DNA from: Oscillospiraceae bacterium
GTDB lineage: Bacteria > Bacillota > Clostridia > Oscillospirales > Oscillospiraceae
Assembly: GCA_021771265.1 (NCBI GenBank)
Contig: JAETPK010000001.1
Location: 1-59,289 of the forward strand
Reading direction: 5' to 3'
DNA: 59,289 bases
Below the pieces are notes generated by a model. The model was not told the DNA's origin. It made no database searches and was given only the letters and a program-made list of their open reading frames with translations. Numbering within the stretch: the stretch's first letter is position 1; every line of letters starts with the position of its first letter. A program made the translations under genes and the position numbers. Shown here in pieces: positions 14,665 through 33,296 of this stretch.

Positions 14665-14680
14665 AAGCGAGGAACGAGCA

Positions 14681-15382: not shown

Positions 15383-15398
15383 CACGGCGGAGGACAGC

Positions 15399-16142: not shown

Positions 16143-16160
16143 ACATCCCAAGGAGAACGT

Positions 16161-16964
16161 ATGAGAAAACTTCGCATCATCACCCTGGTCTGCTTCCTAC
16201 TTTCGGCGGCGGCCCTGGGAGCTTCCACGGCCTATCAGGTCTGGAGCGAGGACAAGACCATCCCTGTCATCGACTGCCCGGAGGAGCCGCTGGTGCTGTC
16301 TGTGAAGGACAGCGGCACCGAGGTGCTGATGCGGGATGTGACCGCTTATGATGAAAAGGACGGCGACCTGACGGACCAGCTGCTGCTGGAGGGGATCGAC
16401 CGCGCCGCTGACGGCGATATCACCGTCACCTACGTGGTGGTGGACAGCGACCATCATGTGACCAGCCGCAGCCGGACCCTGCAATACACGGACTATACGC
16501 CGCCTCGTTTTGCCCTGTCCAAGGAGCTGCGCTATTCCATGGGCAGCAGCGTCCGCATCAAGGACCGGCTGACAGCCACGGACGTGGTGGACGGCGACCT
16601 GTCGGACCGCATCAAGGTGAACTCCAATGACCTCTCTCCCTATTACGAGGGCACGTATCCCGTGACCTTTGAGGTCACCAACAGCCTGGGCGACACCGCC
16701 TCCCTCACCATGGACGTGGTGGTGCGGAATTACGCCGCCGGCGAGCCCCGCATCACCCTGACGCAGTATCTGGTGTACCGGAAGGTGGGAGAGCGCTTTG
16801 ACGCCAGTGCCTATCTGGCTTCTGTCAGCGGCGGGGCGGCAGAGGACGTGGCCATCCAAATGCCGGAGGGCGGACTGTCCGCCGGCGTCAGCCGGGTGAC
16901 CTATTCCTGCGTGGGAGAAAACGGGACCGTGGGCTCCGCCGTCCTCTATGTTGTGACCGAGTGA
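16161..16964 (+). CDS. Secreted or membrane-anchored Ig-like repeat protein (DUF5011-like)
   Basis: Signal/anchor followed by repeated VTAYDEKDGDLTD / LTATDVVDGDLSD...GTYPVTFEVTNSLG motifs. Confidence 0.7.
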   Translation: MRKLRIITLVCFLLSAAALGASTAYQVWSEDKTIPVIDCPEEPLVLSVKDSGTEVLMRDVTAYDEKDGDLTDQLLLEGIDRAADGDITVTYVVVDSDHHVTSRSRTLQYTDYTPPRFALSKELRYSMGSSVRIKDRLTATDVVDGDLSDRIKVNSNDLSPYYEGTYPVTFEVTNSLGDTASLTMDVVVRNYAAGEPRITLTQYLVYRKVGERFDASAYLASVSGGAAEDVAIQMPEGGLSAGVSRVTYSCVGENGTVGSAVLYVVTE

Positions 16965-16974
16965 GGAAACGAAT

Positions 16975-18432
16975 ATGGATGAACAACAGAATTTTCGATG
17001 GACGGACCTGAATCTGTTCTGCCTGCTGCGCCGGCTGGGCCGGGACATTTTGCTGGTGGTGGCGGCGGGCCTCATTGCGGCCATGCTGACCGAGACGGCG
17101 GTCCAAAACCTGTACAAGCCGGAGTATACGGCCAGTGCCACCATGGCGGTCAGCGTGAAAAGCGGCGGATATTCCTCCGTTTTGTCCAATCTGAACATGT
17201 CCTCGGAGATCGCGGACACCTTTACCAAGCTGTTTGAAAGCAATATGTTCGGCGGCATCGCCAGCAGCAAGCTGGGCACCAGCAGCCTGCCCGGCCGGCT
17301 GACGGCCTCCGTCCTGCCGGAGACGAACATCCTGACGCTGCGGGTGACGGCCGACTCCCCGGAGGATGCCTTCCGGACACTGCAGCTGTTGCTGGACAAT
17401 TATGACACGGTCTCGGAATACGTGTTCCAAAACGTGATCCTGAAAGAGCTGGACAGCCCTTCCGTACCGGTGCGGCCCTCCAATCCCGTGGACCGGGGAC
17501 AGCTCCTGAAGCGGGCCTTCATAGGCGGCGCCGGCGCCATGATGGTGCTGCTGCTGGCTATTGCCGTCCTGTCTGACACGGTGCAGACCTCCGAGGCTGT
17601 GCGGCGGAAGCTGGACGTGAAGCTGTTTGCCACCATTCACCATGAGGAAAAGAACAAGACCCTGCGCACAAAACTGAAAAAGGCCAACAAGGGCCTGCTC
17701 ATCACCATGCCGGTGGCCAGCTTCTATTTCACGGAGGAGGTCTACAAGCTGGGGACAAAGGTGGACTATGCCGCCCGTCATGGGGAGCGGAAGGTCATCC
17801 TGGTCACCAGCGTGGCGGAGAACGAGGGCAAGTCCACTGTGGCCGCCAACCTGGCCCTGTCCTTGACCCAGGGGGGGCGGAAGGTGCTGCTCATCGACGC
17901 GGACCTCCACAAAGCCGCCCAGTATAAGCTGTTCCACTGCAAGCCGGCGGTGGAGCTGGCGGATATCCTCCAGGGCATGGCGCCCTATGAGCCGAAGCTG
18001 CTGGAAAGGCAGAACCTGTACACCCTGTTTTCCACCAAGAGCAGCGACGGCGCCGCGGAGCTGATCGCCTCCCGGGAGATGGGGGATCTGCTGGATAAGG
18101 CCCGGGAGGAGATGGACTACATCGTCATCGATTCCCCGCCCACGGCCCTGTTTTCCGATGCGGAGGCCCTGGCGGACCGGGCGGATCTGTCGCTGCTGGT
18201 GGTGCGCCAGGACGTGACCCCGGCCCGGCGCATCAATGACACGGTGGATGTTCTGAACCAATGCCGGGCGGAGCTGCTGGGCTGCGTATTCAATGATGTG
18301 CGGGGTGTGCCCTTCTCCAATGACCACTACAGCTATGGCTACGGTTATGGCTACGGCGAATATTACAGTCAAAAGTCCAAAAGCGGAAAAATGACGGACA
18401 AGCAGTCGGAGGGGACTCATGGAAGAGCTTAA
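16975..18432 (+). CDS. Fused CpsC/CpsD (Wzc-like) bacterial tyrosine kinase, copy 1
   Basis: Wzz-like TM-loop-TM; Walker A SVAENEGKS, A' LLIDADL, B IVIDSPP; Tyr cluster YSYGYGYGYGEYY. Confidence 0.88.
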   Translation: MDEQQNFRWTDLNLFCLLRRLGRDILLVVAAGLIAAMLTETAVQNLYKPEYTASATMAVSVKSGGYSSVLSNLNMSSEIADTFTKLFESNMFGGIASSKLGTSSLPGRLTASVLPETNILTLRVTADSPEDAFRTLQLLLDNYDTVSEYVFQNVILKELDSPSVPVRPSNPVDRGQLLKRAFIGGAGAMMVLLLAIAVLSDTVQTSEAVRRKLDVKLFATIHHEEKNKTLRTKLKKANKGLLITMPVASFYFTEEVYKLGTKVDYAARHGERKVILVTSVAENEGKSTVAANLALSLTQGGRKVLLIDADLHKAAQYKLFHCKPAVELADILQGMAPYEPKLLERQNLYTLFSTKSSDGAAELIASREMGDLLDKAREEMDYIVIDSPPTALFSDAEALADRADLSLLVVRQDVTPARRINDTVDVLNQCRAELLGCVFNDVRGVPFSNDHYSYGYGYGYGEYYSQKSKSGKMTDKQSEGTHGRA

Positions 18433-19882
18433 AAAAGACCAGGAAGAACTGGAGAAGATCGACATTTTCCGGGTCCTTCAGGAGTTTTGGAAGGCTTTTT
18501 GCCGGCTGTGGTGGCTGCCGTTCCTTTTGGCGGCGGTCTGCGGCGGCCTGCTGGGCCTGCGGGCCTGGCGGAGCTATACGCCCATGTACGCCTCCCAGGT
18601 GACATTTACCATCCGGACGGCAGATTCCTCCCTGACGGACATCGGCGGCAGCACCAGCTATTACAACAAGGCCACGGCGGAGCAGCTGACGAAGACCTTT
18701 CCTTACCTGGTCCAGTCAGACCTGATGAAAAGCAAGCTGCGTCAGGCCATGGGCGTGAGTTGGATCAACGGCAATATCACCGCCCAGACGGTGGATAACA
18801 CCAGCCTGTTTTCCCTGCGGGTCACCAGCACGTCGGCCCAGGACGCCTATGACATCCTGGTGGCGGTGACGGAGGTGTATCCCCAGGTGGCGGATTACGT
18901 CATCGGCAACACGGAGATGAACGTTCTGACGCAGCCGGAGGTGGCCGCGGAGCCCTACAATGCGTTCCGGCCCGTTCCCACTGTCTGCAAGGGCGCTTTT
19001 CTGGGGGCGTTTTTGGGGCTGCTGGTCATTTTGATGTACGCCTTCACCCGGCGCAGCATCCGGGACCCGGAGGATATCCGGCGGAAGCTGAACCAGACCT
19101 GTATCGCCACATTGCCCAAGGTCACGTTCAAGCGGCGGGGCAATGCCATTGATAAAAGCATCTCTGTTTTGAACCAGCGGGTGGACGGCGCCTTCCGGGA
19201 GAGCGTGCGGAGCATGCGCATCAAATTCCTGCGGGAGGCACAGAAGCAGCGGGCCAAGGTGGTCATGGTCACCAGCACGCTGCCCGGAGAGGGCAAGACC
19301 ACGGCGGCGGTGAACCTGGCCCTGACCCTCAGTCAAAACGGAGCGCGGGTCATCCTGGTGGACCTGGACCTGCGCAATCCCTCTGTGAAAAAGGCACTGG
19401 GGGTGCGGCAGGCCTCCAAGGGCATGCCGGAGCTGCTGGCAGACCTCACCGCGGAGCCAACGAAGGAGCTGCTGCGTCTGGACCACAGCCGCCTCGCCCT
19501 GCTGGCGGGGGACAGTAGCGCGGCGGACCCCCGGCGGCAGCTCAGCTCCCGCCGGCTGGGCGCCATTCTGGACACGCTGCGGCAGGAGGCAGACTACATC
19601 GTGCTGGACACGCCGCCCTGCGGCATCCTGGCGGACAGTGCCGGCGTAGCCCGGCTGGCGGACTGCACCCTGTATGTGATCCGCGCCGGCGCCGTGGAGG
19701 TGTCCCACATCATGGACAGCCTGCAGTTCCTGGCGGAAAGCGGCACCCGGATGGTCGGCTGCGTGCTCAACGGCGTGCAGCCCGGGCAGGGCGGCTACGG
19801 TTACGGCTATGGCTACGGTTACGGCGGCTATGGCTATGGAAAGTACAATGCCCGCCGCAAGAGCAAGGCGGAGGAGCTGTAG
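18419..19882 (+). CDS. Fused CpsC/CpsD (Wzc-like) bacterial tyrosine kinase, copy 2
   Basis: Same architecture; STLPGEGKT, LVDLDLRNP, IVLDTPP; Tyr cluster GYGYGYGYGYGGYGYGKY. Confidence 0.88.
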   Translation: MEELKKDQEELEKIDIFRVLQEFWKAFCRLWWLPFLLAAVCGGLLGLRAWRSYTPMYASQVTFTIRTADSSLTDIGGSTSYYNKATAEQLTKTFPYLVQSDLMKSKLRQAMGVSWINGNITAQTVDNTSLFSLRVTSTSAQDAYDILVAVTEVYPQVADYVIGNTEMNVLTQPEVAAEPYNAFRPVPTVCKGAFLGAFLGLLVILMYAFTRRSIRDPEDIRRKLNQTCIATLPKVTFKRRGNAIDKSISVLNQRVDGAFRESVRSMRIKFLREAQKQRAKVVMVTSTLPGEGKTTAAVNLALTLSQNGARVILVDLDLRNPSVKKALGVRQASKGMPELLADLTAEPTKELLRLDHSRLALLAGDSSAADPRRQLSSRRLGAILDTLRQEADYIVLDTPPCGILADSAGVARLADCTLYVIRAGAVEVSHIMDSLQFLAESGTRMVGCVLNGVQPGQGGYGYGYGYGYGGYGYGKYNARRKSKAEEL

Positions 19883-19955: not shown

Positions 19956-20450
19956 ATGGAACCGAAAAAGCGCATCGTGGATATCCACACCTACCTGCCG
20001 GTGCTGATGGAGCTTTTGGAGCAAGGGGAGAGCGTCAGTCTTACCGTCACGGGCAACAGCATGGCCCCCTTCCTGATCCATGGGCGGGACCAGATCAGCT
20101 TTCAAAAGCCCGCCGCGCCTTTAAAGCCGGGGGACATGGCCTTTTTCCGCCGGGAGAGCGGGGAGTATGTCATGCACCGGGTCCTGCGGGTGGAGAAGGG
20201 CGGATACTTCCTGGTGGGGGACGGCCAGCAGGAAGTGGAGGGACCGATCCGCCCCGGACAGGTGTTCGCCGTGGTGACGCAGGTGTGCCGCAAGGGCCGC
20301 TGGATCGGGCCCGGGGACTTCTGGTGGGACTTTTTTGCCGGTCCCTGGCTGCGGCTATTGCCGCTGCGGCCCCTGCTGCGGCGGCTGTACGGCGTGTATT
20401 TCCGTATGTTCAGGAGAGGAGGGCGTGACCATGACACAGCCGGATCATGA
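19956..20450 (+). CDS. S24/S26-family peptidase (Ser/His type)
   Basis: VTGNSMAPFL (catalytic Ser), GDMAFFRR, YVMHRV (His) and GDG; GGAGGG RBS. Confidence 0.8.
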   Translation: MEPKKRIVDIHTYLPVLMELLEQGESVSLTVTGNSMAPFLIHGRDQISFQKPAAPLKPGDMAFFRRESGEYVMHRVLRVEKGGYFLVGDGQQEVEGPIRPGQVFAVVTQVCRKGRWIGPGDFWWDFFAGPWLRLLPLRPLLRRLYGVYFRMFRRGGRDHDTAGS

Positions 20451-22215
20451 CCGGACGGCCCTGGGCTCCGAGGCCCTGGCCACGCTGCTGCGGCGCTGGC
20501 GGGAGGGGACCTTCGGCCAGCTGCTGGAGGACTGGCGGTGGATCCTGGCCCACACGAAGCGGTATAAATGGGCAGTGGTCTGTTATCTGGTCCTGGGCGT
20601 GGCCAGCGCCTCTTTGGGGCTGGTGTCGGCGGTGGCCAGCAAGTACGCCATCGACATCATCACCGGCTACCAGACCTCCCGTCTGGGCGCCATGGCGGCG
20701 GTCATGGTGGCATCGGCCCTGGCCAGTCTGCTGCTGCGGAGCCTGGTCTCCCGGGTGTCCGCCAAGGTGAGCATTTTCGTCAGCAACGATATCCAGGCCT
20801 CTGTGTTCGATAAAGTGCTGGACGCCGACTGGCTGTCCCTCAGCCGTTACAGCAGCGGCGACCTCCTCAGCCGCTTCAACAGCGATGTGAGCACCGTGGC
20901 CAGCAACGCCATCGGCTGGCTGCCGAACCTTCTGGTGAGCCTGTATACATTCATCGCCACGTTTTTCGTCATCCTCCATTATGACCGGGTCATGGCCCTC
21001 ATCGCCCTGGCCAGCGCGCCGTTTTTGCTGGTGAGCTCCCGGTATCTGTTGGGCCGCATGCGGCGGCACAACCAGCGGATGAAGGAGCTGGGCAGCCAGC
21101 TGATGGCCTATGAGGTGGAGACTTTCTATAATGTGGACACCATCAAGAGCTTCGGCATCATGGGCCAGTATGGCCGCGGCCTGCGGCAGCGGCAGGAGAC
21201 CTTCAAAAAAGCCAGCCTGGACTATAACCTGTTCAGCATCAAGACGGACGCGGCCATCTCCCTGCTGGGCTCCGCCGTGCAGCTGGCGGGCTTTGGGTAC
21301 TGCCTGTACCTGCTGTGGAGCGGGAAGATCGTCTACGGCACCATGACGCTGTTTTTATCCCAGAGTTCCAAGCTCTCCTCCACGTTCAGCAGCCTGGTGG
21401 GCGTGGTGCCCGCGTTTCTCACCAGCTCCGTTTCCGCCCGGCGCATCCGGGAGCTGACGGAGCTTCCCAAGGAGCCCCATATCTCCGGCAGTGATCTGGA
21501 TTGCCGGGGAGAGGGGGGCTTCGCCGTCCGGGTGGAGGACGTGGACTTTGGCTATGACCCGGCGGAGCCGGTCCTTGTGCGCTCCGCCTTCCACGCGGAG
21601 CCGGGGGAGATCGTGGCGCTGGTGGGCCCCTCCGGTGAGGGGAAGACCACCATGATCCGCCTGATGCTGGGCCTGGTCCGGCCGGACCGGGGCAGGGTGT
21701 TCCTGAAGAGCGCCAGCGGCCTGGAAGCGGAGATGAACGCGGAGACCCGGCACCTCTTTTCCTATGTGCCCCAGGGCAACACCATCCTCTCCGGCACCAT
21801 CGCGGACAACCTGCGCATGGTGAAGGCGGATGCTACGGACCAGGAACTGGAGCAGGCGCTGCGCCTGGCCTGCGCCTGGGAATTCGTGTCCCGGATGCCG
21901 GAGGGCATCCACAGCGGTGTGGGAGAGCGGGGCAGAGGCCTTTCCGAGGGACAAGCCCAGCGGCTTGCCATCGCCCGGGCCGTTTTGAAGGACGCGCCTG
22001 TGCTGCTGCTGGACGAGGCCACCTCCGCCCTGGATGTGGCCACGGAGCGGCAGGTGCTGCGCAACCTCATGACCGGGCGGCCCGACCGCACCGTCATCGT
22101 CACAACCCACCGGCCCAGCGTGCTGGGCATGTGCCGCCGGGTGTACCGGATCGTGGACCGGCGGGTGCGGGAGCTGGGCCGTGAGGAGTCGGAGCGGCTG
22201 TCCATGGATTTTTAG
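20431..22215 (+). CDS. ABC exporter (TMD+NBD fusion), no C39 peptidase domain
   Basis: Six TM segments, GPSGEGKTT, YVPQ, LSEGQAQR, LLLDEATSALD and TTHR. Confidence 0.92.
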   Translation: MTQPDHDRTALGSEALATLLRRWREGTFGQLLEDWRWILAHTKRYKWAVVCYLVLGVASASLGLVSAVASKYAIDIITGYQTSRLGAMAAVMVASALASLLLRSLVSRVSAKVSIFVSNDIQASVFDKVLDADWLSLSRYSSGDLLSRFNSDVSTVASNAIGWLPNLLVSLYTFIATFFVILHYDRVMALIALASAPFLLVSSRYLLGRMRRHNQRMKELGSQLMAYEVETFYNVDTIKSFGIMGQYGRGLRQRQETFKKASLDYNLFSIKTDAAISLLGSAVQLAGFGYCLYLLWSGKIVYGTMTLFLSQSSKLSSTFSSLVGVVPAFLTSSVSARRIRELTELPKEPHISGSDLDCRGEGGFAVRVEDVDFGYDPAEPVLVRSAFHAEPGEIVALVGPSGEGKTTMIRLMLGLVRPDRGRVFLKSASGLEAEMNAETRHLFSYVPQGNTILSGTIADNLRMVKADATDQELEQALRLACAWEFVSRMPEGIHSGVGERGRGLSEGQAQRLAIARAVLKDAPVLLLDEATSALDVATERQVLRNLMTGRPDRTVIVTTHRPSVLGMCRRVYRIVDRRVRELGREESERLSMDF

Positions 22216-22414: not shown

Positions 22415-24706
22415 ATGCGAAAACACAGAGTCTTAGCGGGGATTCTGACTGTCATCATGCTGCTTGGCATGATTCCATCCGCCCTTGCGGCGGAGACAGC
22501 CGTCTATAACGGCCCGGAGCCGCCGCAGAAAACCTATACGCAGGGCGTCATTCTGGGCAAGACTGCCACGGAACTGAAAAACAATGAGACGACCCTGAAC
22601 CTGACCATTTCCGCTCCCTCTGATCAGAGCCCTGTGGCGGTGGAGTTCGTGCTGGACGGCACCAGCAGCCTGCACGGTGTTGTCAGCAGTACACAGTGGG
22701 TCCAGGATATGATGGATTCCATTAAAGCGAATCTGAAAGGCAAGCTGGACAATGTCTATGCGGGCATTACGGTGTTCGGCAAGACGGCGGAGGTTGCTAT
22801 CCCCATGAGGTTGGTGGCCGATGATGGCAGCAACTTTACTGTAAAGATGCTGCTGGATGCCATGGCCAAAATCGATGTGGGCAGCAACGTGGAAGCTGGA
22901 TTGAAGTCCGGCCTCGAGGACCTGGAAGGTGCGAACCTGCCCAAGAATACCAAGAAGTACATGGTCCTCATCACCGACGGCGGCAGCTATTTCTGGATGA
23001 ACGGCGATGAAGCTGTCAACAACAGCTACTATACCGGCGGAACGCCTGCGACCGCGTCTTTGATGAACAACGACGCCGCCGAGGGCGGCTACACCGCACT
23101 GAGGTCTCTGGCCGATATGCTGAAAGATCCGTCCGCGCCCACCGCGGGAACTGAGACCTACGGTGATGCCAGCGCCCATGAGCCTCTGGCCGCCGCGGTC
23201 CAGCAGATCAAGGATACGAAGGCATACACCAACTTTGAGACCGGCATTTACCGGGCCGCGCGGAAGCTGAATGAGATCCCCGGCGATGTGAACCTGTTCA
23301 CGGTTGGCCGTCCCTATTATGCGGATACGCCCTCCCTGTCCGCCCTGACGAAGCTGGCCGGCGAATTTGTGGCATATGCCGCTGGCAAGGACAAAACCGG
23401 CCTTTCCCGGAGCTTGGCCAGTACGAAGCTGGAAGACCTGGACGAAGTTTTGGAGCAGATCGTGGAGAAGATGAGCATCATCGTCCCCAAGGGCAGCACC
23501 GTTACCGATGTCATCGGCCGCACCCAGAGCGATAAGGGTGAGACCGAGGCCTACGACTTTGATGTCATCACCGAGGATGGCTTCACCCTGGTGGTAGGCG
23601 ACAAGACCTACACCGGCACCCGCGTGTCCGAGAACACCTGGTCCTTCGCCGATGGTTCCAGACTGGTCTACACCCCCGGCGCCAATGAGCACTTTGTCCT
23701 GACCCTGGGTCAGGATATCGTCCGCGGCGGCAAGGTGACGCTGCGCTATAACGCGGAGCTGGCTGAGTATGACGCTTCCAGTGGCCACCACGACGTGCTG
23801 ACCAACGTGGAGGCCTATCTGGATATTATCCCCACTGTGGGAAATGAGGGTGCGCGCTGCCGCTTCCCCGAGCCCAGCCTGGGCTACCGCTTCGGCGGCG
23901 GCGGTGGCGGCGGCGGGACCGTCATCCCTGATGAAGATCCCCCTCTGGCTGATTTGAATGAGAGCGACCACTACGCTTATATCATCGGCCGTAAGGACGG
24001 TCTGGTCCATCCTGAGGCCAACATCACCCGCGGCGAAGTGGCCACCATTTACTTCCGCATGCTCACTGACGAGTCCCGCAATGAGCTGTGGAGCCAGAGC
24101 AACCCCTACACCGATGTCCAGCCGGACACCTGGTGCAACGCGGCCGTTTCCACCATGACCCGCGCCGGCGTGATCGAGGGCTTTTCTGACGGCACCTTCC
24201 GTCCCTCCGCGCCCATCACCCGTGCCCAGTTTGCCACCATCGCCGTCCGCTTCTTTGAGGTGGTCTATTCCGGCGATGACAAGTTCACTGATATTGCCGA
24301 CCACTGGGCGAGGGATTATATCAACAAGGCAGCTGAGGCCGCCCTTATCAACGGCTTCTCCGACGGCACCTTCCGTCCCAACCAGAACATCACCCGTGCT
24401 CAGGCCATGGCCATCTTCAACCGCGTGCTGGGCCGTGCTCCCGAAAAGGACCACCTGCTGCCTGACGAGATGATCACCTGGCCCGACAATATGGATAAGA
24501 ACGCCTGGTATTACGCCAACATGCAGGAGGCCACCAACTCCCATGAGTTCGACATCGCGTACGACGCGGACGGTGAGCCCTACGAGGTTTGGACCGACAT
24601 CCTGCCTGTCCGTGACTGGGCGGCGTTTGAGGAGGAATGGTCCACGGTGAACTCCGCCGCCAACCCCGGCGAGGTCATCTCCGTTCCTGCAAATGCCCTG
24701 CCGTAA
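22415..24706 (+). CDS. Secreted VWA-domain protein with C-terminal S-layer homology (SLH) domains
   Basis: Signal peptide ending ALA-AE; VWA FVLDGTSSL...MVLITDG; Gly linker; SLH repeats ITRGE, GFSDGTFRPSAPITRAQ and GFSDGTFRPNQNITRAQ. Confidence 0.85.
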   Translation: MRKHRVLAGILTVIMLLGMIPSALAAETAVYNGPEPPQKTYTQGVILGKTATELKNNETTLNLTISAPSDQSPVAVEFVLDGTSSLHGVVSSTQWVQDMMDSIKANLKGKLDNVYAGITVFGKTAEVAIPMRLVADDGSNFTVKMLLDAMAKIDVGSNVEAGLKSGLEDLEGANLPKNTKKYMVLITDGGSYFWMNGDEAVNNSYYTGGTPATASLMNNDAAEGGYTALRSLADMLKDPSAPTAGTETYGDASAHEPLAAAVQQIKDTKAYTNFETGIYRAARKLNEIPGDVNLFTVGRPYYADTPSLSALTKLAGEFVAYAAGKDKTGLSRSLASTKLEDLDEVLEQIVEKMSIIVPKGSTVTDVIGRTQSDKGETEAYDFDVITEDGFTLVVGDKTYTGTRVSENTWSFADGSRLVYTPGANEHFVLTLGQDIVRGGKVTLRYNAELAEYDASSGHHDVLTNVEAYLDIIPTVGNEGARCRFPEPSLGYRFGGGGGGGGTVIPDEDPPLADLNESDHYAYIIGRKDGLVHPEANITRGEVATIYFRMLTDESRNELWSQSNPYTDVQPDTWCNAAVSTMTRAGVIEGFSDGTFRPSAPITRAQFATIAVRFFEVVYSGDDKFTDIADHWARDYINKAAEAALINGFSDGTFRPNQNITRAQAMAIFNRVLGRAPEKDHLLPDEMITWPDNMDKNAWYYANMQEATNSHEFDIAYDADGEPYEVWTDILPVRDWAAFEEEWSTVNSAANPGEVISVPANALP

Positions 24707-24949: not shown

Positions 24950-24978
24950 TTGAATTTGCCAATGGAATGTGCTACCAT
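24950..24978 (+). promoter_or_regulatory. Probable promoter of the PqqD-peptide-kinase-rSAM operon
   Basis: TTGAAT, 17 bp, TG-c-TACCAT. Confidence 0.5.
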
Positions 24979-25084
24979 AACAGTAATTATCCTGACAATA
25001 GGAGTACTATGTCCGTTTGCGGAAAAGTAGTTTTTCCCAAGGGAACAAGTTTCCCGCTGTCATGGAAAAGGGGTGAAAAGAAAT

Positions 25085-25348
25085 TTGAAAGCGACAAGTG
25101 AAGTGGTCCTTCGGGAGATCGCTGGAGAGAATCTTCTCATCCCGGTCGGCCAGACGGCGCTGAAGCTCCACGGCATGATCACCCTCAGCGAGAGCGGTCT
25201 GCTGCTGTGGCAGCGGCTCCAGGAGGAGTGCACCGAGGAGGACCTGGTCAATGCCCTGCTGGCAGAATACCAGGTGGACCGGGAAACTGCCGCCGCCGAT
25301 GTGAAGGCGTTTGTCCATCAGCTGCGGGAAGTGGGGATCCTGACTTGA
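25085..25348 (+). CDS. Stand-alone PqqD-family RiPP recognition element (RRE)
   Basis: MKATSEVVLREIAGENLLIPVG...MITLSESGLLLWQRL...LLAEYQVDRETAAADVKAFVHQLREVGIL is a classic PqqD pattern. TTG start chosen from RBS spacing; GTG at 25073 is an alternative. Confidence 0.9.
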   Translation: MKATSEVVLREIAGENLLIPVGQTALKLHGMITLSESGLLLWQRLQEECTEEDLVNALLAEYQVDRETAAADVKAFVHQLREVGILT

Positions 25349-26001
25349 AACTGCAAAGAAAGCTCCGTGGGGCGTTTGCCGCGGTGCTGGCGGTCACGCT
25401 GCTTTTGCCGCTGGGCGGCTGCGGAAGGGAGCAGGAGGACGTTTCGTTTCCCTGCCTGCTGGCGGAGGACCGGCTCAGCGTTACATCCCTGTTTCAATAC
25501 TCCGGAGAAAATCCGGACTGCAGCAGTGAGGCCGGAGAGGAGATCGCCGCACTGGCGGTGACCAACCAATCGGAAGAGCACCTGACTTCCGCAAAGCTCA
25601 CCGCGAAGCTGGCGGATGGGACAAAGCGGGTATTCCAGCTGACGGATATCCCTCCGGGGCAGACGGTTTGGGCCTTTGACCGGGACAATGGCGGCTTCAC
25701 GCCTGCCAACACCTGCAAGGAGCTGAAATGCGAGGCGTCCTTTGCGGAGGAGCTGCCATTGCTGGCGGATCAGGTGGCCGTGGAGACGGCGGGCATCGCT
25801 GTGACCCTGACCAACCTGACGGACGAAGACCTTGCGGACCTGACCGTTTATTGCCACTGCCTTTTTGACGGGACCTATTTCGGGGGTTCGACGTACGCAT
25901 ATCCTGTGGAGGGCATTCCCGAGGGAGAGAGCGTTACCATCCAGGCGGAGGAATGCTATTTGGGTGAAGCAGCGGCTGTACGGGTGACCCGTAACAGCTG
26001 A
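25345..26001 (+). CDS. Hypothetical lipoprotein
   Basis: TTG start overlaps the PqqD stop; lipobox LLPLGG-C; two beta-rich repeats (LAVTNQSEEHL / VTLTNLTDEDL...IPPGQTV / IPEGESV). Confidence 0.65.
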   Translation: MKLQRKLRGAFAAVLAVTLLLPLGGCGREQEDVSFPCLLAEDRLSVTSLFQYSGENPDCSSEAGEEIAALAVTNQSEEHLTSAKLTAKLADGTKRVFQLTDIPPGQTVWAFDRDNGGFTPANTCKELKCEASFAEELPLLADQVAVETAGIAVTLTNLTDEDLADLTVYCHCLFDGTYFGGSTYAYPVEGIPEGESVTIQAEECYLGEAAAVRVTRNS

Positions 26002-26060
26002 GCAGATAAATTCGTTGCCGGGCGCGCGATCCACCGGCCGAAAAACGAGAGGAGAAGACC

Positions 26061-26327
26061 ATGAAGACATATGTAAAGCCTGAGCTCTATTTTGAGAGCT
26101 TTGAGTTGTCACAGCATATCGCGGCATGCGACTTGAAATTGAATCAAGAAAATATTTGGACTTGCAGTGTGGAGCTCCATACAGGTGACTCCAGTAGTCC
26201 CTTCTTTGGCGATATGGAGAATGAATTTGTCGGTGGATTTGTAGATAATACTAGCTGCACGAAAAAGTGCGAGATCTACTGCTACACCAACGGTGCCGGC
26301 AGCCTGCCCCGTCTGTTCCAGTCCTGA
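26061..26327 (+). CDS. Putative RiPP precursor peptide (88 aa, 5 Cys, C-terminal Ser)
   Basis: Strong GAGGAG RBS; leader MKTYVKPEL (YxxPxL RRE-binding motif); Cys at 23, 35, 66, 70 and 74; located between PqqD and the kinase/rSAM genes. Confidence 0.72.
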   Translation: MKTYVKPELYFESFELSQHIAACDLKLNQENIWTCSVELHTGDSSSPFFGDMENEFVGGFVDNTSCTKKCEIYCYTNGAGSLPRLFQS

Positions 26328-26333
26328 TCTCCC

Positions 26334-27209
26334 GTGGGCTTCTGCACGGAATACGGCATCGCGGATGTGACCGTCCGCCTGCATACCCCCAGGGAGGTCC
26401 AGTTGGCGGACAGCTTCCGCCCCTTCGTGGGAAGTGTCGGCGGCGAGACGGCGGAGGTATATCTCCGGGAGGTGGACCACCTGCCGGAGCTGACCGGCCC
26501 CGTGATGTTCACGGACATGGCGTTTTCCGTCTTCCCCAGGGATGGCGGTTACATTCGCCGCTACCACGACCGAAAAGAGCAGGACCGCCCCTACGCGGTC
26601 GGGGAAGCGGACTGGAAAAGCGGCCGGGAGACCGTGTCGTTCCTCTCCGGTGACTGGCGGTTTTTCTCCGGGAGCCAGAACTGCGTGTCCCATATCGCCC
26701 TGGAAGAGCTGCTGCTCTGGTATGACCGGCTCATTCTCCACGCCTCCTTTGTGGCGTCGCCCTTTGGCGGCATCCTGTTTTCCGGCCCGTCTGGCATCGG
26801 GAAGTCCACCCAGGCGGACCTTTGGGTGCGGCACGGGGAAGCCAGGCTCATCAACGGGGACCGTACCATCCTCCGGCCGGACAGCGGCCGCTGGCTGGCC
26901 TATGGCTCGCCCTATGCTGGTTCCTCCCGGTGCTACGTGAACGAAAAACACCCGGTGCGGGCCATCGTCCTGCTGGAGCAGGGCAGTGACTGCCGGATTA
27001 GCCGGCTGTCTCAGCCGGCGGCTTTCCAAAAGCTGTACGCCGGCACCACGGTCAACACCTGGAACGCGGCCTTTGTGGAGCGCGTCTGCGCGCTGCTGGC
27101 CCGCCTGGTGGCGGAGGTTCCGGTGTATGCCCTGCGGTGCACACCGGACCGGGCGGCGGTGGAGTGCCTGCGGTCCCACCTTCTGAAGGAAGATGCAAAT
27201 GGAACGTAA
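26334..27209 (+). CDS. HPr-kinase-like P-loop protein (putative peptide kinase)
   Basis: LILHASFV...GILFSGPSGIGKSTQADLW...INGDR...YGSPYAG, an HprK-related layout. Confidence 0.78.
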   Translation: MGFCTEYGIADVTVRLHTPREVQLADSFRPFVGSVGGETAEVYLREVDHLPELTGPVMFTDMAFSVFPRDGGYIRRYHDRKEQDRPYAVGEADWKSGRETVSFLSGDWRFFSGSQNCVSHIALEELLLWYDRLILHASFVASPFGGILFSGPSGIGKSTQADLWVRHGEARLINGDRTILRPDSGRWLAYGSPYAGSSRCYVNEKHPVRAIVLLEQGSDCRISRLSQPAAFQKLYAGTTVNTWNAAFVERVCALLARLVAEVPVYALRCTPDRAAVECLRSHLLKEDANGT

Positions 27210-28338
27210 AGAAGTGAATTATGAAGCGGCGCTGACCCAGTACCTGTTTCAAAAGGCGTCCCGGGCGCGGCTTCCCCTCAGCGGGACCTTTGAGCTCTCC
27301 CCGGTGTGCAATCTCAACTGCCGAATGTGCTACGTCCGCAAGACGCCCCAAGAGGTGGCTGCCCACGACCGCCCCATCATGACGCTGGAGCAGTGGCTGG
27401 ACATTGCCCGACAGGCCAAAAAGGCTGGGATGCTGTATCTGCTGCTGACCGGCGGCGAACCGTTCTTGTGGCCGGATTTCTGGAAGCTGTACGAACAGCT
27501 GACCGCCATGGGTTTCCTGGTGTCCATCAACACCAACGGCACCCTTATCGACGGCGAGGCCATCCGGCGGCTGCAAGCCGATCCGCCCACCCGCGTCAAC
27601 ATCACCCTCTACGGCGCCAGGGACGAGACGTACCGTGCCCTGTGCCGGGCAGACGGGATGTTTGACCGCGTAGACCGGGCCATCAGCGGCCTGCGGGACG
27701 CCGGCGTCCTGGTGAAGCTGAACTGCTCGCTGACCCCGGCAAATGCCAAAGATTTGGAAGCGCTCTGCCGGTACGCCCGGGAGCGGCAGCTGATCCTGGA
27801 AGTCAATACCTACATGTTCCCTCCGCTGCGCCGGGATCCGACCATGGTCGGGCAGAACCAGCGGTTCACACCGCGGGAGGCGGCCTGGTATCATTTTAAA
27901 AGGTATCAGTACCAGCAGGGGAATGAACGATACATTCGCTTTTTGAAAAACGCGGAGCGGGGCCTGATCGATCCCCCTGGTCTGGACGAACAGTGCGTGG
28001 ACCCGGTGGACGGAAAGATCGCCTGCCGGGCGGGAAACGCCGCCTTTTGGATCACCTGGGACGGTTGGATGACGCCCTGCGGCATGATGCCCACGCCGAA
28101 GGTGGATATCACGGCCCTCCCGTTTGCGGAGGCCTGGGCGAAACTCGTGCAGGAAGCCGAAGCGGTGGCGGTGTCCGGCGTCTGTCTGGGCTGCGCCAAC
28201 CAGGCCATGTGCCACGCCTGTGCCGCCATGGCCATGACGGAGACGGGCAGCGCGGGGGGCATCCCCACATATCTGTGCCGGATGGCGGAAGAGATGAAGC
28301 GTCTGGCGAAAGAAGAGCTGGCCACATTGGGCCAGTAG
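27199..28338 (+). CDS. Radical SAM protein with SPASM domain
   Basis: CNLNCRMC (CxxxCxxC), LTGGEP, NTNG; C-terminal Cx12Gx4C...Cx2Cx5Cx2C...C. Confidence 0.92.
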   Translation: MERKEVNYEAALTQYLFQKASRARLPLSGTFELSPVCNLNCRMCYVRKTPQEVAAHDRPIMTLEQWLDIARQAKKAGMLYLLLTGGEPFLWPDFWKLYEQLTAMGFLVSINTNGTLIDGEAIRRLQADPPTRVNITLYGARDETYRALCRADGMFDRVDRAISGLRDAGVLVKLNCSLTPANAKDLEALCRYARERQLILEVNTYMFPPLRRDPTMVGQNQRFTPREAAWYHFKRYQYQQGNERYIRFLKNAERGLIDPPGLDEQCVDPVDGKIACRAGNAAFWITWDGWMTPCGMMPTPKVDITALPFAEAWAKLVQEAEAVAVSGVCLGCANQAMCHACAAMAMTETGSAGGIPTYLCRMAEEMKRLAKEELATLGQ

Positions 28339-28426
28339 ATTCCCTTAACCTGCAAATCCATGTGAATATGATTTGCATTTGCATATAGATCAAGTAGATC
28401 AAGAAAAACCGAGGAGGTTCAATGCT

Positions 28427-31400
28427 ATGAGAAGACACGGACTGAAAAAGGGCCTGTCCCTGCTGCTGGCCTTTTGCATGATCCTGAGCCTGCTGCCCAT
28501 GACGGCACTGGCGGATGAGATCAGCGAGGAGCCCGGCGCCGCCGTGGAGGAACAGTCCCCCGCATCCGGCGATACAACGGCCGCGGGCACCGGCGAGGAG
28601 CAGGCTGGCGAGACCGGCGAGACCGGTGAAGCCACCGAGCCCGCGGACCCCAGCGCTCCCACGGAGCCTGATACTGGCAACACCGCGGAGCCCGGCGAGG
28701 GCGAGACCGGCGAAGCCACCGAACCCACGGACCCCAGCGCTCCCACGGAGCCTGCGGAGCCCACGGAGCCCGGTGAAGGCGACCCCAGCGTCCCTGCCGA
28801 CCCCAGCACCGGCGAGCAGCCCGCTGCTGGCGAGGAAGAGGGCGAGAAGACCTTCGAAGAGCAGGTCGGCGACGAGCTGTCTCCCATCACCGGCGAAAAG
28901 ACGCCGGAGCAGATCGCGGAGGAAGAAGCCCTCAAGGCCGCTGAGGAAGAGCGGGCCCGGCAGGAAGCGGCAGCCGCGGAAGCCATTGCCAAGGCGGAAG
29001 CAGAGGCCGCTGCCGCTGAGCTGGAAGCGGCTTTCACGGTGGAAGAGAAGAAGTCTGCCCGGGACACCGGTGATGACGGCTTCTATAAGATCGTCCACCT
29101 GGACGCCGGCCGCAAATATTTCAGCGTGGACAGTATCAAGGCCATCATCGACAATATGGCCGACGCCGGCTATAACCAGCTGGAGCTGTATCTGTCCGAC
29201 AACCAGGGCTTCCGCTTTGCCCTGGATGACATGACCATCGAGACGACATACGGCACCTATGATTTGAGCACTGCCTTGGGCGAAGGTCCCTCTGGCGGTG
29301 ATGGTAGCGGCGAATACCTGGACGAAGCTGACATGGACGAGATCATCGCCTACGCCAAGGCGAACCATATCGAGATCGTCCCCTGCATCAACACCCCGGG
29401 CCACATGGGCGCCATTTTGGAGGCGTTCCCGGAGTTCCGTTACAGCAGCTCCAAGAGCTCCATCGACCTGGAGGACCCCGAGGCCGTGGCTTTTGCCCTG
29501 GCCATCGTGGCCAAGTACGCCGACTATTTCAGCAAAAAGGGCTGCGACTTCTTCAATATCGGCGCGGATGAGTATGCCAATGACCTGTCTTCCACCATGG
29601 GCTTTGAGAGCCTGTATACCGCTGGCAAATACCAGCGCTTTGTGGACTATTTGAACGCCGCCGCCCAGATCGTTATCAACGAGGGCATGACCCCCCGCGC
29701 CTTCAACGACGGCATCTATTATAAGAATGACACCTCTTACAGCATCAACAAGGCCATCCAGGTCTGCTACTGGTCCTCTGGCTGGAACGGCTACAACGTG
29801 GCTTCCGCCGCGACCATCAGCCGGCAGGGCCATGACATGATCAACACCCACGGGGATTACTACTGGGTGCTGGGCAACAGCGGCTGGCAGTGCAGCGCCG
29901 ACAAGGCCTCCGGCTTTGCGTATCAGGATTTCCAGGGTAACAGCGGCCTTTCCGCTGATGGCGCCATGTTCTGCATCTGGTGCGACGTGGGCAATGCCGA
30001 CGGCCAGGACGGCGGCGCTCGGGTCGTTGCCAACACCGCTGACGTGATCGCGGCCTTTGGCGCCACCCTGCCTGTCCCTGATACCGGCAACGGCACGGCC
30101 GAGCATCCCTATGACCTGACGGTGGAGAAGAACCAGGATGTGCTTGTGGGCCTGAAGCTGGGCGAGTCCTGCTACCTCACTATGGGCAAAGACGTGGTTT
30201 GGATGACCAGCGATCCGGATGTGCTTCAGATCGAGGCTGTCAACGTGAGCGCGGCAGCCAGCACCTATGCGCTGGAGGAGAGCGGCGACGTGACTGCTGC
30301 CACCGTGAAGGTGACGGCGACCGGCATCGGTGAAGCTACCCTGACCGCTGACGCGTCGACCTTTGATGTCTCTGTTCGTGCAGCCAAGAGCAAGACTGTC
30401 ACCGTTACGGTGGAAGGGACCACCACTGTAACGGTCAGTGGTGCCAATTACGCCGGTACGTATATAACGGAAGACCCCGGTATTGCCACCGTTGAGGTGA
30501 CTGATACGGATGGCACGGGTTCGACCGTGGATTATAAACAGGCTTCTGTTACCTGTGGTGATTTGATTGATGCTCCTGCTGATAATTGGACAAAAACAGA
30601 TTATTATTATAAGGTAGGAGATACTTACTATCCCTTGTATGCGAAAAGAAGCGGATATTCTATTGGCAAAAAGACATATACATGGGGCTATTCCGCTTCA
30701 GATTCTTCTAATAATGTAACAGGAATTGACACGCAACAAGCGAATACTTACAACGAACCCAACATCAATGTTTATACTGCGTCGACTGTGGATGGGACTC
30801 CTGCCTCCACCACCATCACGTTCACAGGTGTGAGCGTCGGCACCACCTCTGTCATCATCGGCGACACGGAATATACCATCAATGTCCAAGCCGAGAATCT
30901 TTCTAACGTGACTCCCCTGACGGTGGAGTATTGGATCACCAACCGTCAGGTGACGGCAGACGGCGCGGAATCCAAGCAGATCACGGCGGAAGAAGCATAT
31001 GGCGAAAGCGGTGTATTGCTCAGCCAATTGATCCCTACCACTCCTATATTTGATAACCATGAGATGCTTTTGTGGAAGGGTACTCTCTTGACGTATGGCA
31101 ATCACCAAGTGGAACAAGGTGAAGACAAGACACAATCCGGCACGGACTTCACGTATATTCGTTACTGGGACAGCCAATGGGCGTATTCCGCCGATGGCAG
31201 GAACTGGACCAATGTGGCCGACGGTGACCAGATCGTGGCCTATTATCTCCAGAAGACTAAGGTAACGGACGAGGTTACGACGCAGGTGGTGGACTGGGGC
31301 CAGGATTATGCCGAGTGGAAGGGTGGCAGAGATAACCGCTGGTTCTGGGATAACTATGTGCAAAATGGCTCCAAGTTTGTCTTCTTGGACTTTGCCGTCG

Positions 31401-33223
31401 TGTATGAGAATGGCACGCAAAACCCCAGTAGCTTCCCCACAGATAACACATGGTTCTTCCATTTTGACGGGTGCTCTGCGCAAAATCCCCGTGTACTGGG
31501 CGCGATCACCTTTACTGAGAGTGCGGAATTCGAAATTTGGAAGGTGACAGTTCAGGATGGCACTTGCACAGGATATAGCAGTGTTAGCAGCTTTACGCCT
31601 AAGTATTCTGGCGAGGAAGTAGAGGTTTGGAATGTGGATACGTCCACTGAGGAACCGTGTATCGAATCTTTGACCTATACCGCAAACCGAAGCGGCAAAT
31701 TGGTCCGCATTTATATCCGGACCAAGATTACGGAGGACTCTTTGCAAGTCCGTTACGTCGACCAGACAACAGGACAAGAGTTCTATAATTATGGTATTGC
31801 CGTTCAGCAAGGAACTTATTTCGATGTGAACTTTAAGTTGAATGCCGACCAGACTCTGAGTAACAATACTGTTACAAACATTCTGGGCGTTGAGCAACCC
31901 GTTTCCGCAGACCTTTCCACTATGCCGGCCATCGGCGGTCAGTATCGGTATAGTAACTATACCTGTACAAAGGTGGAGCGCAGTGAGGACGGCAAGACGG
32001 TGACCCTGTACTATACCTTCAACGATACCCACAGCTTTGTGGTGGACTTTGGCCTGCCGCTGAGGATCACAGCAGCCGATTTGGGAATCACGGGTGACTG
32101 GACGAGTGTGACTGTAACCGGTGCGGAATATGGTACAGTGAAAGCAGGCATCGGCGAAGGCATCACTTATACACCCACCAGTGTTATGATGGGTATTGAG
32201 ACCCTGGATCTGACGCTGACACAAACTAAGGATGGTAGCTCTACTTCCAGCGCGCAAAAAATTTATATCTATCCCGCCACTACGGTGTATTATGAAGAGG
32301 GCTTCATGGTAAGCGGCGGCAGCAAGGGCACTGCCTTCCAGACCGCGGAGAAGGTTGGCGACAAGCGGAATGTCTATGGCTACGACCCCGCCTATAACAC
32401 GATGGCCCATACCACTGCTGAGCTGAAGGAAGGCGCTGACGCTGAATTCACCTTCACCGGCACCGGCGTGGATATCTACGCGGATTGCAGCACCGACACC
32501 GGCACCGTGATGATCCAGGTGACAGACCAAAACGGCGCTGTGGAAAAGCTGCTGGTGGTGAACACCGCCATGCTGGCCGGCGAGACTACCGCCACCAATG
32601 GCGCCAAGCAGGCTATCTCCGCGAAGAACGTTCCCATTGCCAGCATCGAGAGTCTCAGCTCCTCTCCCAAGGAGCACACGGTCACCATCACCCATGTGGG
32701 CAATACCAAACCCGTGTATCTGGATGGCTTCCGTGTCCATCAGACTTTGAAGTATAATACCGCCGCTTATGCCACGGACGGCGAATCCATCTCCAACATG
32801 GTGGAGCTCCGCGACCTAGTGATCCTGGGTGTCAATACGGATGCAGCCAATAGCAGTCAGGAGTACAAGGACCAGATCACCAAGACGGTGAAAGCTCAGG
32901 TTCTGAATACGGGTGCAAACGCCGCTCTGATCACGAATGTCACCAACGGCGCTGGCATCAACCAGAGCAACCTTGTGGATGTGCTGGATAAGGGCCCCAA
33001 GAACGAGATCTATCTGGGTGCTGGCGAGACGCTGGTGTTCAATGTCGACAATGATGCCCAGGTGGGCGTGAAGTGCCTGACCGACGATGCTGCTGGCACC
33101 GTCAATGGCAGGAGCGTCACCTCTCAGACAGACATGTTCTATGCGGTCAATGCCGGCCAGGTGACTATCACCAACATCGATACCGGCACGCTGGCCGTCA
33201 CGGAGCTGAAGTTCTGCAGCTGA
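28427..33223 (+). CDS. Large secreted GH20 beta-N-acetylhexosaminidase-domain protein with beta-rich C-terminal modules
   Basis: Signal peptide, acidic Pro/Glu linker, GH20 motifs HLDAGRKYFS, INTPGHM and FNIGADEY (catalytic DE); Ig-like Thr/Val-rich segments follow. Confidence 0.85.
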   Translation: MRRHGLKKGLSLLLAFCMILSLLPMTALADEISEEPGAAVEEQSPASGDTTAAGTGEEQAGETGETGEATEPADPSAPTEPDTGNTAEPGEGETGEATEPTDPSAPTEPAEPTEPGEGDPSVPADPSTGEQPAAGEEEGEKTFEEQVGDELSPITGEKTPEQIAEEEALKAAEEERARQEAAAAEAIAKAEAEAAAAELEAAFTVEEKKSARDTGDDGFYKIVHLDAGRKYFSVDSIKAIIDNMADAGYNQLELYLSDNQGFRFALDDMTIETTYGTYDLSTALGEGPSGGDGSGEYLDEADMDEIIAYAKANHIEIVPCINTPGHMGAILEAFPEFRYSSSKSSIDLEDPEAVAFALAIVAKYADYFSKKGCDFFNIGADEYANDLSSTMGFESLYTAGKYQRFVDYLNAAAQIVINEGMTPRAFNDGIYYKNDTSYSINKAIQVCYWSSGWNGYNVASAATISRQGHDMINTHGDYYWVLGNSGWQCSADKASGFAYQDFQGNSGLSADGAMFCIWCDVGNADGQDGGARVVANTADVIAAFGATLPVPDTGNGTAEHPYDLTVEKNQDVLVGLKLGESCYLTMGKDVVWMTSDPDVLQIEAVNVSAAASTYALEESGDVTAATVKVTATGIGEATLTADASTFDVSVRAAKSKTVTVTVEGTTTVTVSGANYAGTYITEDPGIATVEVTDTDGTGSTVDYKQASVTCGDLIDAPADNWTKTDYYYKVGDTYYPLYAKRSGYSIGKKTYTWGYSASDSSNNVTGIDTQQANTYNEPNINVYTASTVDGTPASTTITFTGVSVGTTSVIIGDTEYTINVQAENLSNVTPLTVEYWITNRQVTADGAESKQITAEEAYGESGVLLSQLIPTTPIFDNHEMLLWKGTLLTYGNHQVEQGEDKTQSGTDFTYIRYWDSQWAYSADGRNWTNVADGDQIVAYYLQKTKVTDEVTTQVVDWGQDYAEWKGGRDNRWFWDNYVQNGSKFVFLDFAVVYENGTQNPSSFPTDNTWFFHFDGCSAQNPRVLGAITFTESAEFEIWKVTVQDGTCTGYSSVSSFTPKYSGEEVEVWNVDTSTEEPCIESLTYTANRSGKLVRIYIRTKITEDSLQVRYVDQTTGQEFYNYGIAVQQGTYFDVNFKLNADQTLSNNTVTNILGVEQPVSADLSTMPAIGGQYRYSNYTCTKVERSEDGKTVTLYYTFNDTHSFVVDFGLPLRITAADLGITGDWTSVTVTGAEYGTVKAGIGEGITYTPTSVMMGIETLDLTLTQTKDGSSTSSAQKIYIYPATTVYYEEGFMVSGGSKGTAFQTAEKVGDKRNVYGYDPAYNTMAHTTAELKEGADAEFTFTGTGVDIYADCSTDTGTVMIQVTDQNGAVEKLLVVNTAMLAGETTATNGAKQAISAKNVPIASIESLSSSPKEHTVTITHVGNTKPVYLDGFRVHQTLKYNTAAYATDGESISNMVELRDLVILGVNTDAANSSQEYKDQITKTVKAQVLNTGANAALITNVTNGAGINQSNLVDVLDKGPKNEIYLGAGETLVFNVDNDAQVGVKCLTDDAAGTVNGRSVTSQTDMFYAVNAGQVTITNIDTGTLAVTELKFCS
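28616..28754 (+). repeat. 55-bp intragenic direct repeat (GETGEATEP.DPSAPTEP x2)
   Basis: Copies at 28616-28670 and 28700-28754 differ at 3 positions. Confidence 0.85.
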
Positions 33224-33249: not shown

Positions 33250-33296
33250 AAAAACCGCCCCGCCGTGGAAGCTCCACGGCGGGGCGGTCTCTTTTA
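33250..33296. terminator. Bidirectional terminator between GH20 and alr-like genes
   Basis: ACCGCCCCGCCGTGGA-AGC-TCCACGGCGGGGCGGT flanked by A and T tracts. Confidence 0.8.

Follow-up and report, generated by a model that had tools for sequence, protein, structure and literature searches.

A proposed radical SAM-containing relative of the LPP phosphopeptide cassettes with a giant secreted protein as its candidate partner

Introduction

The LPP system of Bacillota (LppA/B/K/S/D/N; Popov et al. 2026, PMC13381572) is the described system closest to the locus studied here. In that system, the kinase LppK phosphorylates Ser3 of the core, which is an internal serine, and LppS cuts the leader with the help of a RiPP recognition element (RRE; RiPP, a peptide made on the ribosome and modified after translation) (PMC13381572). 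For paeninodin, phosphorylation of the C-terminal Ser was described, and for pseudomycoidin a hexose addition that depends on a nucleotidyltransferase (PMC8498205; repeated in PMC7533575). A WxxP leader is the rule for such paeninodin-type lasso peptides, and the biological role of the capsule-linked phosphopeptides of both kinds is stated to be unknown (PMC13381572). Here, we analysed a stretch of 59,289 nucleotides from an Oscillospiraceae bacterium (GCA_021771265.1, contig JAETPK010000001.1, positions 1 to 59,289), which is called the window below. It carries a cassette of RRE, precursor peptide, HprK-like kinase and radical S-adenosylmethionine (SAM)/SPASM enzyme. All five LPP core genes (SpI, RRE, HprK, NTP transferase and MsbA-like exporter) were found in the window among capsule genes. 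We propose, with a probability of about 0.45, that the locus is a radical SAM-containing relative of LPP and that its product is the partner, and perhaps the anchor, of a giant exoprotein.

Results

Cassette genes and their conservation

Five open reading frames (ORFs) lie consecutively and closely packed on the + strand. They encode a stand-alone RRE of the PqqD family (25085..25348), a lipoprotein (25345..26001), an 88-aa precursor peptide (26061..26327), a kinase of HprK/PEPCK fold (26334..27209) and a radical SAM/SPASM enzyme (27199..28338), whose gene overlaps that of the kinase. The RRE matched Pfam PqqD with an E value of 6e-19, gave weak matches to lasso B1 structures besides, and occurred in 35/38 well-covered loci, for which at least 8 kb of fetched DNA was available on either side. 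Its start is likely the TTG at 25085, as judged from homologue starts, and its stop is at 25348. The nearest named relative, with 94% identity in the radical SAM enzyme, was an uncultured Dysosmobacter, so that a gut Oscillospiraceae is the probable host.

The original prediction had described one tightly packed five-gene operon. This was borne out, with all ORFs in order on one strand. The peptide, kinase and radical SAM genes were syntenic in 17 of the 18 genome loci. The exception was a broken copy (L014). In that copy (178-1354), the lipoprotein and kinase genes are split and the peptide was not found. The lipoprotein, which belongs to an unnamed family and shows an LGGC lipobox-like motif and a weak match to the FxLYD domain, was present as predicted. 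Its gene was found in only 27/38 well-covered loci and is thus optional, and the steadiest partner, a giant secreted protein, had been missed.

No Asn_synthase (the lasso cyclase) was found on the contig of the window (C133), and no B2 protein (PF13471) in its genome, which is 95% complete. Together with the PqqD match, this agreed with the predicted RRE-dependent RiPP-type pathway without a lasso cyclase, and a lasso peptide was rejected. One 561-aa Asn_synthase match lies on another contig of the same genome (C31), and further PqqD matches lie on C34 and C98.

The giant secreted protein and its unnamed domain

The region originally assigned to the pathway (24950..28338) proved too narrow, and needed genes were located at 11064-22215 and 28424-33223. 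The latter gene (28424..33223, + strand) encodes a giant secreted protein of 1,599 aa with a signal-peptide-like N-terminus, a GH20 domain, Ig-like repeats and a C-terminal partner domain. This C-terminal part is an unnamed domain of about 400 aa (32009..33223, + strand). It co-occurs with the cassette and is a candidate peptide-binding site, at even odds. The last ~400 residues recurred beside the cassette in 33/38 well-covered loci. The five exceptions include a split cassette (G091), in which giant gene, peptide and kinase lie together on another contig, and a locus (L111) where the fetched DNA ends inside a giant ORF of 3,317 aa. The others (L081, L085, L147) are near-identical copies with the giant gene absent nearby.

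Among 401 genomes of the order, the radical SAM enzyme (at E values up to 1e-60) and the profile of the domain (at E values up to 1e-8) picked out one and the same set of 11, and the domain was found in 0/390 others. The window's own genome (G000) and one other (G785) carried two copies each of the radical SAM enzyme and the domain. Six further genomes had a locus lacking the domain, and 4 of them carried it elsewhere. Where the giant gene lies upstream, the peptide gene starts no more than 33 nt from it in 18/19 loci of that order. In the other gene order, the peptide gene lies about 2 kb before the giant gene in most of 39 loci. The domain was not in the fetched DNA in 22/80 loci.

The cargo of the giant proteins varied while the domain was constant. 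Among 23 proteins, 10 carried GH20, 5 a BNR/sialidase-like domain, 2 vWA, 2 PA14 and 4 another domain or none. Neither an SLH nor a sortase-anchor family was reported among these 23, a C-terminal transmembrane segment was seen in 1/70 C-terminally complete giant proteins, and no anchor was found in that of the window. The domain has the motifs PATTVYYE, YGYD, FTGTG, DGFRV and GPKNE. Arg or Lys stands at Arg242 in 60/60 and at Arg268 in 57/60 sequences, and, as a guess from this conservation, these residues could contact a phosphate. Pfam gave only partial matches to Big_9 (7/20) and CE2_N (3/20), and nothing firm came from NCBIfam, PDB sequences or the ESM Atlas (best 0.86). With matches of E values up to 1e-30 clustered at 50% identity, the family comprised 2,515 clusters, a count that includes partial matches and fragments.

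Two other functions of the domain were rejected. A Cys/Ser/His protease did not fit, with no Cys or His conserved to at least 70% and one Ser in 43/60. A genome-wide sorting tag did not fit a domain that occurs once or twice per genome, equal to the cassette number where counted. Near the start of the giant protein, imperfect direct repeats (28600-28800) encode a Pro/Glu/Thr-rich linker. The second cassette of the window's genome (L019:6503-12571, on contig C26) encodes a 1,234-aa vWA protein with the domain, a peptide, a kinase and a radical SAM enzyme. Its peptide has 88 aa, five Cys and a terminal Ser, with no adjacent RRE, and an integrase-like ORF lies upstream (5089-6267).

Upstream genes of the LPP type

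The upstream genes are also on the + strand. An NTP_transf_5 nucleotidyltransferase resembling LppN and PsmN (11064..12305) matched Pfam PF14907 with an E value of 7e-46. An S24/S26 (SpI-like) peptidase (19956..20450; Pfam S24 E 4e-6, TIGR02228 E 3e-5) is the likely leader peptidase and resembles LppS. Its Ser35 and His74 are spaced by 39 residues, the same as S29 and H68 in LppS. An MsbA-like ABC exporter resembling LppD (20431..22215) was assigned by family profile matches. NTP_transf_5 exceeded the Pfam cut-off in 10/10 other cassette genomes, against 2/20 cassette-negative genomes of the own family, and the S26 peptidase was found in 10/10 against 4/20. The cassette had been taken for a lasso/ranthipeptide hybrid. 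That view was abandoned, since the LPP system is closer and the window holds its peptidase, exporter and nucleotidyltransferase.

Precursor peptides

The precursor begins with MKTYVKPEL, has five Cys and ends in Ser. Its layout comprises a YxxP leader (about residues 1-22), conserved Cys at 23, 35, 66 and 74, a hypervariable middle, an [E/D]xYCY motif and a terminal F-x-S. Among 63 homologous proteins, the query included, the terminal Ser and Tyr4 were found in 63/63, Cys23, Cys35 and Cys66 were invariant, and Cys74 was kept in 62.

A larger set of 80 distinct peptides was collected from the fetched loci, in which they lie next to a gene for the kinase, the radical SAM enzyme or the domain. 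Of 84 matches to the search pattern, 5 were dropped because they were parts of other ORFs or lay in off-target frames. One peptide (L008) was added by hand. Four Cys were held by 67/80. The pattern demanded YxxP and a Cys, so both features are circular in this set; the terminal Ser is not. It was found in 79/80 precursors, and the YVKPEL leader and terminal Ser noted originally both stood. In the background, 43/833 (5%) long ORFs from 60/162 contigs of the window's genome ended in Ser. Phe stood at -3 from the terminus in 62/80. The steadiest feature was the last Cys, kept in 80/81 precursors and also in a single-Cys paralogue. It was followed by Tyr in 72/79 and preceded by Glu or Asp at -3 in 58/79. 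In one precursor of the 80 (L115:7779-8015), the last Cys is missing and so is the terminal Ser; its locus is otherwise complete and has the domain.

The leader consensus was YxKPxxxxExFELSxHIAxC. In 17/20 pairs whose radical SAM enzymes were at least 88% identical, core identity was 0.33-0.63 and the leaders were almost unchanged. Four public metatranscriptome runs of one study cover the region, and in three of them positions 26131-26279 were exchanged for about 150 other bases between near-identical flanks. A cassette-like exchange was also seen in the giant gene, where near-identical strains have an unrelated stretch of about the same length in place of 30518-30802.

Kinase

The kinase model had a pLDDT of 94, and its fold matched PEPCK and HPrK. 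A PDB search with the single sequence gave no match. The kinase profile aligned to L. casei HPrK across the His, Walker A and acidic (Asp) motifs, and the corresponding residues were His136, GKST (Lys157) and N-G-D176. The motif of paeninodin-type lasso kinases is His-Lys-Asp-Asp. In 71/72 distinct kinase motifs of the cassettes, the first Asp of the DD pair in HPrK was Gly, and His, Lys and the second Asp were kept. Judged from these motifs, kinase activity is likely.

Given its conservation in 79/80 precursors, the C-terminal Ser is the residue on which the kinase most likely acts. A Ser within the first four core residues is absent from the peptide of the window and was present in 16/80 relatives. 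In cassettes without the domain, 10/23 peptides ended in Ser, and 12 of the 13 others had a Ser in the first four core residues, as in LPP. This pattern fits a kinase that would need a Ser at either end. The originally proposed assignment of the kinase to the terminal Ser stood as the likeliest one. The argument behind it did not, since an HprK-like kinase alone does not imply this site, as the internal Ser of LppK indicates. By analogy with LPP and paeninodin biochemistry, Ser88 is probably phosphorylated.

Radical SAM enzyme and crosslink

The closest folds to the radical SAM model were anSME (TMq 0.68) and SuiB (0.65). Pfam SPASM itself gave no match at E 0.01, and no sacti- or ranthisynthase family model reached its cut-off. 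Cys149 was invariant (64/64). The enzyme has eight C-terminal Cys (266, 276, 294, 329, 332, 338, 341 and 360), with Cys266 in 62/63.

Among characterised enzymes, anSME, SuiB and PqqE count as fully ligated. The Aux I site of CteB is open, AlbA has seven Cys, and in SkfB the site is open even though a fourth Cys is present (PMC6231123). CrpC has three Aux I ligands (PMC13692751). The eight conserved Cys are as in the fully ligated, non-thioether enzymes, and with SkfB as a counterexample this weakened a thioether reading without overturning it. A thioether crosslink was thus not established. An enzyme acting on the NxxC motif tolerates Ala, Gln or Asp (PMC9389541). In the precursors, Cys74 was more conserved than Tyr75 or Glu71, and a Cys74-to-Glu71 thioether of NxxC type was ranked first for this reason. 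It is tentatively the single likeliest link. Thioethers of the other Cys appear improbable. A PqqE-like Glu71-Tyr75 C-C bond and other non-sulfur chemistry would jointly account for about half of the expectation. The ExxxY of the precursor resembles the Glu-Tyr pair of PqqA, to whose residue spacing it is likened.

Peptide-domain binding and co-variation

A complex was predicted from the domain and the core (residues 22-88). The score was 0.58, and the best control gave 0.00. Runs gave 0.59, 0.00 and 0.58, with contact agreement of at least 20% and partner pLDDT of at least 27. Of 157 solved pairs, 116 reached the mark used, as did 2 of 215 mismatched ones.

With radical SAM and kinase identity removed, core identity followed domain identity with a partial r of 0.25 (p 0.0005; 50 non-independent loci, whose relatedness overstates p values in this analysis). 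Core identity also tracked kinase identity (r 0.17), and leader identity gave r 0.07 with the domain (p 0.09). The model and the co-variation weakly suggested that the peptide binds the domain of the giant protein, and we give this an even chance.

Related cassettes without the domain

In a class-wide sample, in which two genomes were left unscored, 11 of 398 other Clostridia genomes had a more distant radical SAM enzyme, and the domain was in none of them. The 13 loci of this distant group had the RRE in 13, the kinase in 12 and the S26 peptidase in 10, and capsule genes in most. Their precursors were mostly short, with two or three Cys, and often two or three per locus (L158-L170). The distant group formed one clade (13 tips, support 0.89) with the root unresolved, so its pattern may rest on few events. 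Support for the focal group was 0.03, so that no direction of gain or loss is claimed.

Some of these loci had additional features. A Cys-free WxxP precursor, like those of paeninodin-type lasso peptides, lies on a 5.2-kb contig (L162) with a radical SAM/kinase cassette that has its own YxxP peptide (154-294, 3495-3665). In L165 (8694-8909), the RRE is adjoined by a YxxP peptide of 72 aa whose tail is a long GGK repeat. A reduced copy in L170 (8339-9635) lacks the kinase, and mobile-element-like genes come after it.

Other features of the locus

A capsule/exopolysaccharide (EPS) block was assigned by family profile matches at 12751..19882 (+ strand). It encodes a CapD-like dehydratase, an unknown ORF (14648-15382), a CpsB phosphatase, an Ig-domain protein (16161-16964) and two Wzc-like tyrosine autokinases. 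Wzc genes were found in 16/38 well-covered loci, and the Ig-domain protein adjoins Wzc in 10/38. The gene of a vWA + SLH surface protein assigned by Pfam (22418..24706, + strand) sits between the exporter and the RRE. It is a lineage-limited neighbour (7/38 well-covered loci), and a hairpin lies 3' of it at ~24737-24766. The operon would be closed by a terminator-like hairpin of 16 pairs (33254..33288, + strand), which is a consensus match only. A promoter scan gave 6 sites against 4.4 expected, with none upstream of the RRE on the + strand. A 14.9-kb metatranscriptome contig (X2) spans 18365-33236. It was not counted as evidence of expression, since such contigs cannot show transcription and another one (X3) runs past the terminator.

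Discussion

Proposed pathway

Based on these results, we propose the following pathway. The RRE would very probably hold the precursor leader via YxxP, as in related systems. The radical SAM enzyme likely cross-links the core, and the kinase would probably phosphorylate the last serine, Ser88. By analogy with LppS, the S26 peptidase has a good chance of trimming the peptide near Ala22/Cys23, and the ABC transporter likely exports the trimmed product. The nucleotidyltransferase is thought to act on the phospho-Ser, as in pseudomycoidin, and the chance of a sugar being added onto the Ser88 phosphate with its help is a little short of even. The predicted complex points, with a balanced chance, to binding of the product to the unnamed domain of the giant secreted protein. 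Tethering of the peptide-bound giant protein to the capsule or cell surface, by anchoring of the phospho-Ser to polysaccharide, is doubtful. In its fullest form, a RiPP would serve as a cell-surface anchor in gut Clostridia. A giant glycosidase or adhesin would offer its dedicated domain as the dock for the cross-linked peptide. The terminal phospho-Ser of the peptide would be joined by the nucleotidyltransferase to a capsule or wall sugar, in place of LPXTG or SLH anchoring. We regard this form, too, as doubtful.

Several observations weigh against a partnership with the giant protein, or against single steps of the pathway. Four near-identical metagenome loci (L081, L085, L086 and L147) have peptide, kinase and radical SAM enzyme, and the giant gene is not in their fetched DNA. 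The domain was also not found in 2 of the 6 further genomes, both with contigs breaking in or before the giant gene. The agreement of radical SAM enzyme and domain over 401 genomes includes 8/10 positive genomes, other than the window's own, that had fed the domain profile. The distant cassettes without the domain indicate that the enzymes do not need it, even if their single clade may reflect few events, and neighbouring genes are also transferred together. The complex score of 0.58 falls where the tool rates its calls oftener wrong than right; up to 0.60, the mark was reached only by 18 solved pairs and both mismatches. Cores were swapped with little change of the domain (L001/L079, domain 0.91 and core 0.51; L007/L098, domain 0.96 and core 0.46). 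Since cores change at 91-96% domain identity, any binding would have to rest on the conserved Cys and the tail. For the tailoring steps, the Gly at the first Asp of the kinase, the internal Ser site of LppK with respect to a terminal Ser88, and the inactivity of LppN on heterologous expression (PMC13381572) count in the same direction.

Alternative explanations

The strongest alternative is a diffusible cross-linked phosphopeptide, acting as an antimicrobial or a strain-specific signal, with the giant protein as a co-inherited neighbour and at most a receptor or immunity factor. A hypervariable core behind a conserved leader suits a toxin or signal and speaks against an anchor, and the exchange of the core in near-identical strains points the same way, as does the existence of related cassettes without the domain. 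The distribution is also patchy (11/401 genomes), and like patchiness was taken by the LPP authors as typical of conflict genes (PMC13381572). However, this explanation leaves the restriction of the domain to cassette genomes and the match in copy number unexplained. It also does not explain why the domain stays with the peptide in split loci and on anchorless proteins of changing cargo, and the operon showed neither a dedicated regulator nor a dedicated immunity gene. We consider it unlikely.

A role of the phosphopeptide in capsule/EPS synthesis, as a primer, carrier or regulator of Wzc/CpsB, with the giant protein as another surface gene of the island, appeared improbable. The cassette is flanked by capsule genes in the window, and so it is at many loci, whether or not they have the domain, and the nucleotidyltransferase is in all 10 cassette genomes. 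LPP and paeninodin clusters are also found in capsule loci (PMC13381572). However, the strict co-occurrence of the domain counts against this role, and there are several cassettes with no capsule genes close by, among them the second copy in the window's genome (L019). A self-contained five-gene pathway to a thioether-bridged (sacti-/ranthipeptide) peptide with the C-terminal phosphate added last is very unlikely. The RRE, the SPASM enzyme, the terminal Ser and the four Cys conserved in the precursor would suit it, and SkfB is a case where the Aux I site stays open in the presence of an additional Cys (PMC6231123). However, the five genes include an optional lipoprotein and no peptidase or exporter. 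These two and a nucleotidyltransferase lie upstream and co-occur with the cassette. The enzyme is closer to anSME and SuiB in its eight SPASM Cys than to CteB or AlbA, with no synthase model of either class at cut-off.

The proposed partnership of peptide and giant protein would offer the capsule-linked phosphopeptides a concrete candidate partner, an unnamed domain that gut commensals carry on secreted proteins of the GH20, sialidase-like and adhesin types. If the anchor were true, it would be a new display route for host-glycan-processing enzymes and a structural role of a RiPP. It would also hint at what LPP and paeninodin peptides do in their capsule loci, and it would be categorically new. 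Otherwise, the locus still provides a SPASM subfamily that is uncharacterised, and a variant kinase for which candidate substrates have been identified.

Comparison with known systems

No description of this cassette or of its product was found in the literature searched; subscription journals and bioRxiv supplements were outside its scope and the LPP report itself was not among its returns, which makes the test incomplete. Within that scope, the earlier statement that no characterised product has this combination agreed with our results.

Partial likenesses were found in several systems. NCBIfam describes mixes of PqqD, radical SAM/SPASM and HprK-related proteins (SynChlorMet, GeoRSP and HPr-rel-A/B), to which the window gave weak matches well below the equivalog cut-offs (ScmF 72 against 400 bits, HprK_rel_B 20 against 200, PqqD_rel_X 25 against 35). 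QhpC, with its enzyme QhpD, is a precedent for a radical SAM-cross-linked peptide as a subunit of a larger protein. The ranthi- and sactipeptide systems (CteB, AlbA, NxxcB) share an RRE-guided SPASM enzyme beside a Cys-rich precursor, and [E/D]xxC resembles NxxC. In contrast to these, the enzyme of the window has eight instead of seven C-terminal Cys, and the locus has a stand-alone RRE, a kinase and a nucleotidyltransferase. Paeninodin and pseudomycoidin share with the window an HprK-like kinase, acting there on the Ser at the C-terminus, and a hexose-adding nucleotidyltransferase. However, the window differs in having no cyclase on the contig and no B2 in the genome, in YxxP instead of WxxP, and in a Cys-rich core of 66 residues.

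The LPP system has in common with the window an SpI-like peptidase, a separate RRE, a kinase of the HprK-like type, an NTP transferase and an exporter resembling MsbA, and also the capsule locus, the YxxP leader and no need of a lasso cyclase. Of the LPP leader consensus, YxxPxVLxHQxIxFETxxS, the peptide of the window shares only YxxP. LPP is phosphorylated at core Ser3, whereas here the terminal Ser is conserved and the peptide of the window has none near the core start. The LPP product is linear, whereas the window adds a radical SAM/SPASM enzyme, a four-Cys core, an optional lipoprotein and the giant-protein domain. The main text of the LPP report makes no mention of radical SAM, and one column header of its supplement names the radical SAM domain (PMC13381572). 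In its Supplementary Data, two SpI rows (clusters 4 and 9, 'RRE others') resemble the related clostridial cassettes by eye and have no assigned precursor. Taken together, the cassette works like the LPP and paeninodin tailoring systems. It is outside LPP in its leader, Ser position and linearity, and it is outside the lasso peptides.

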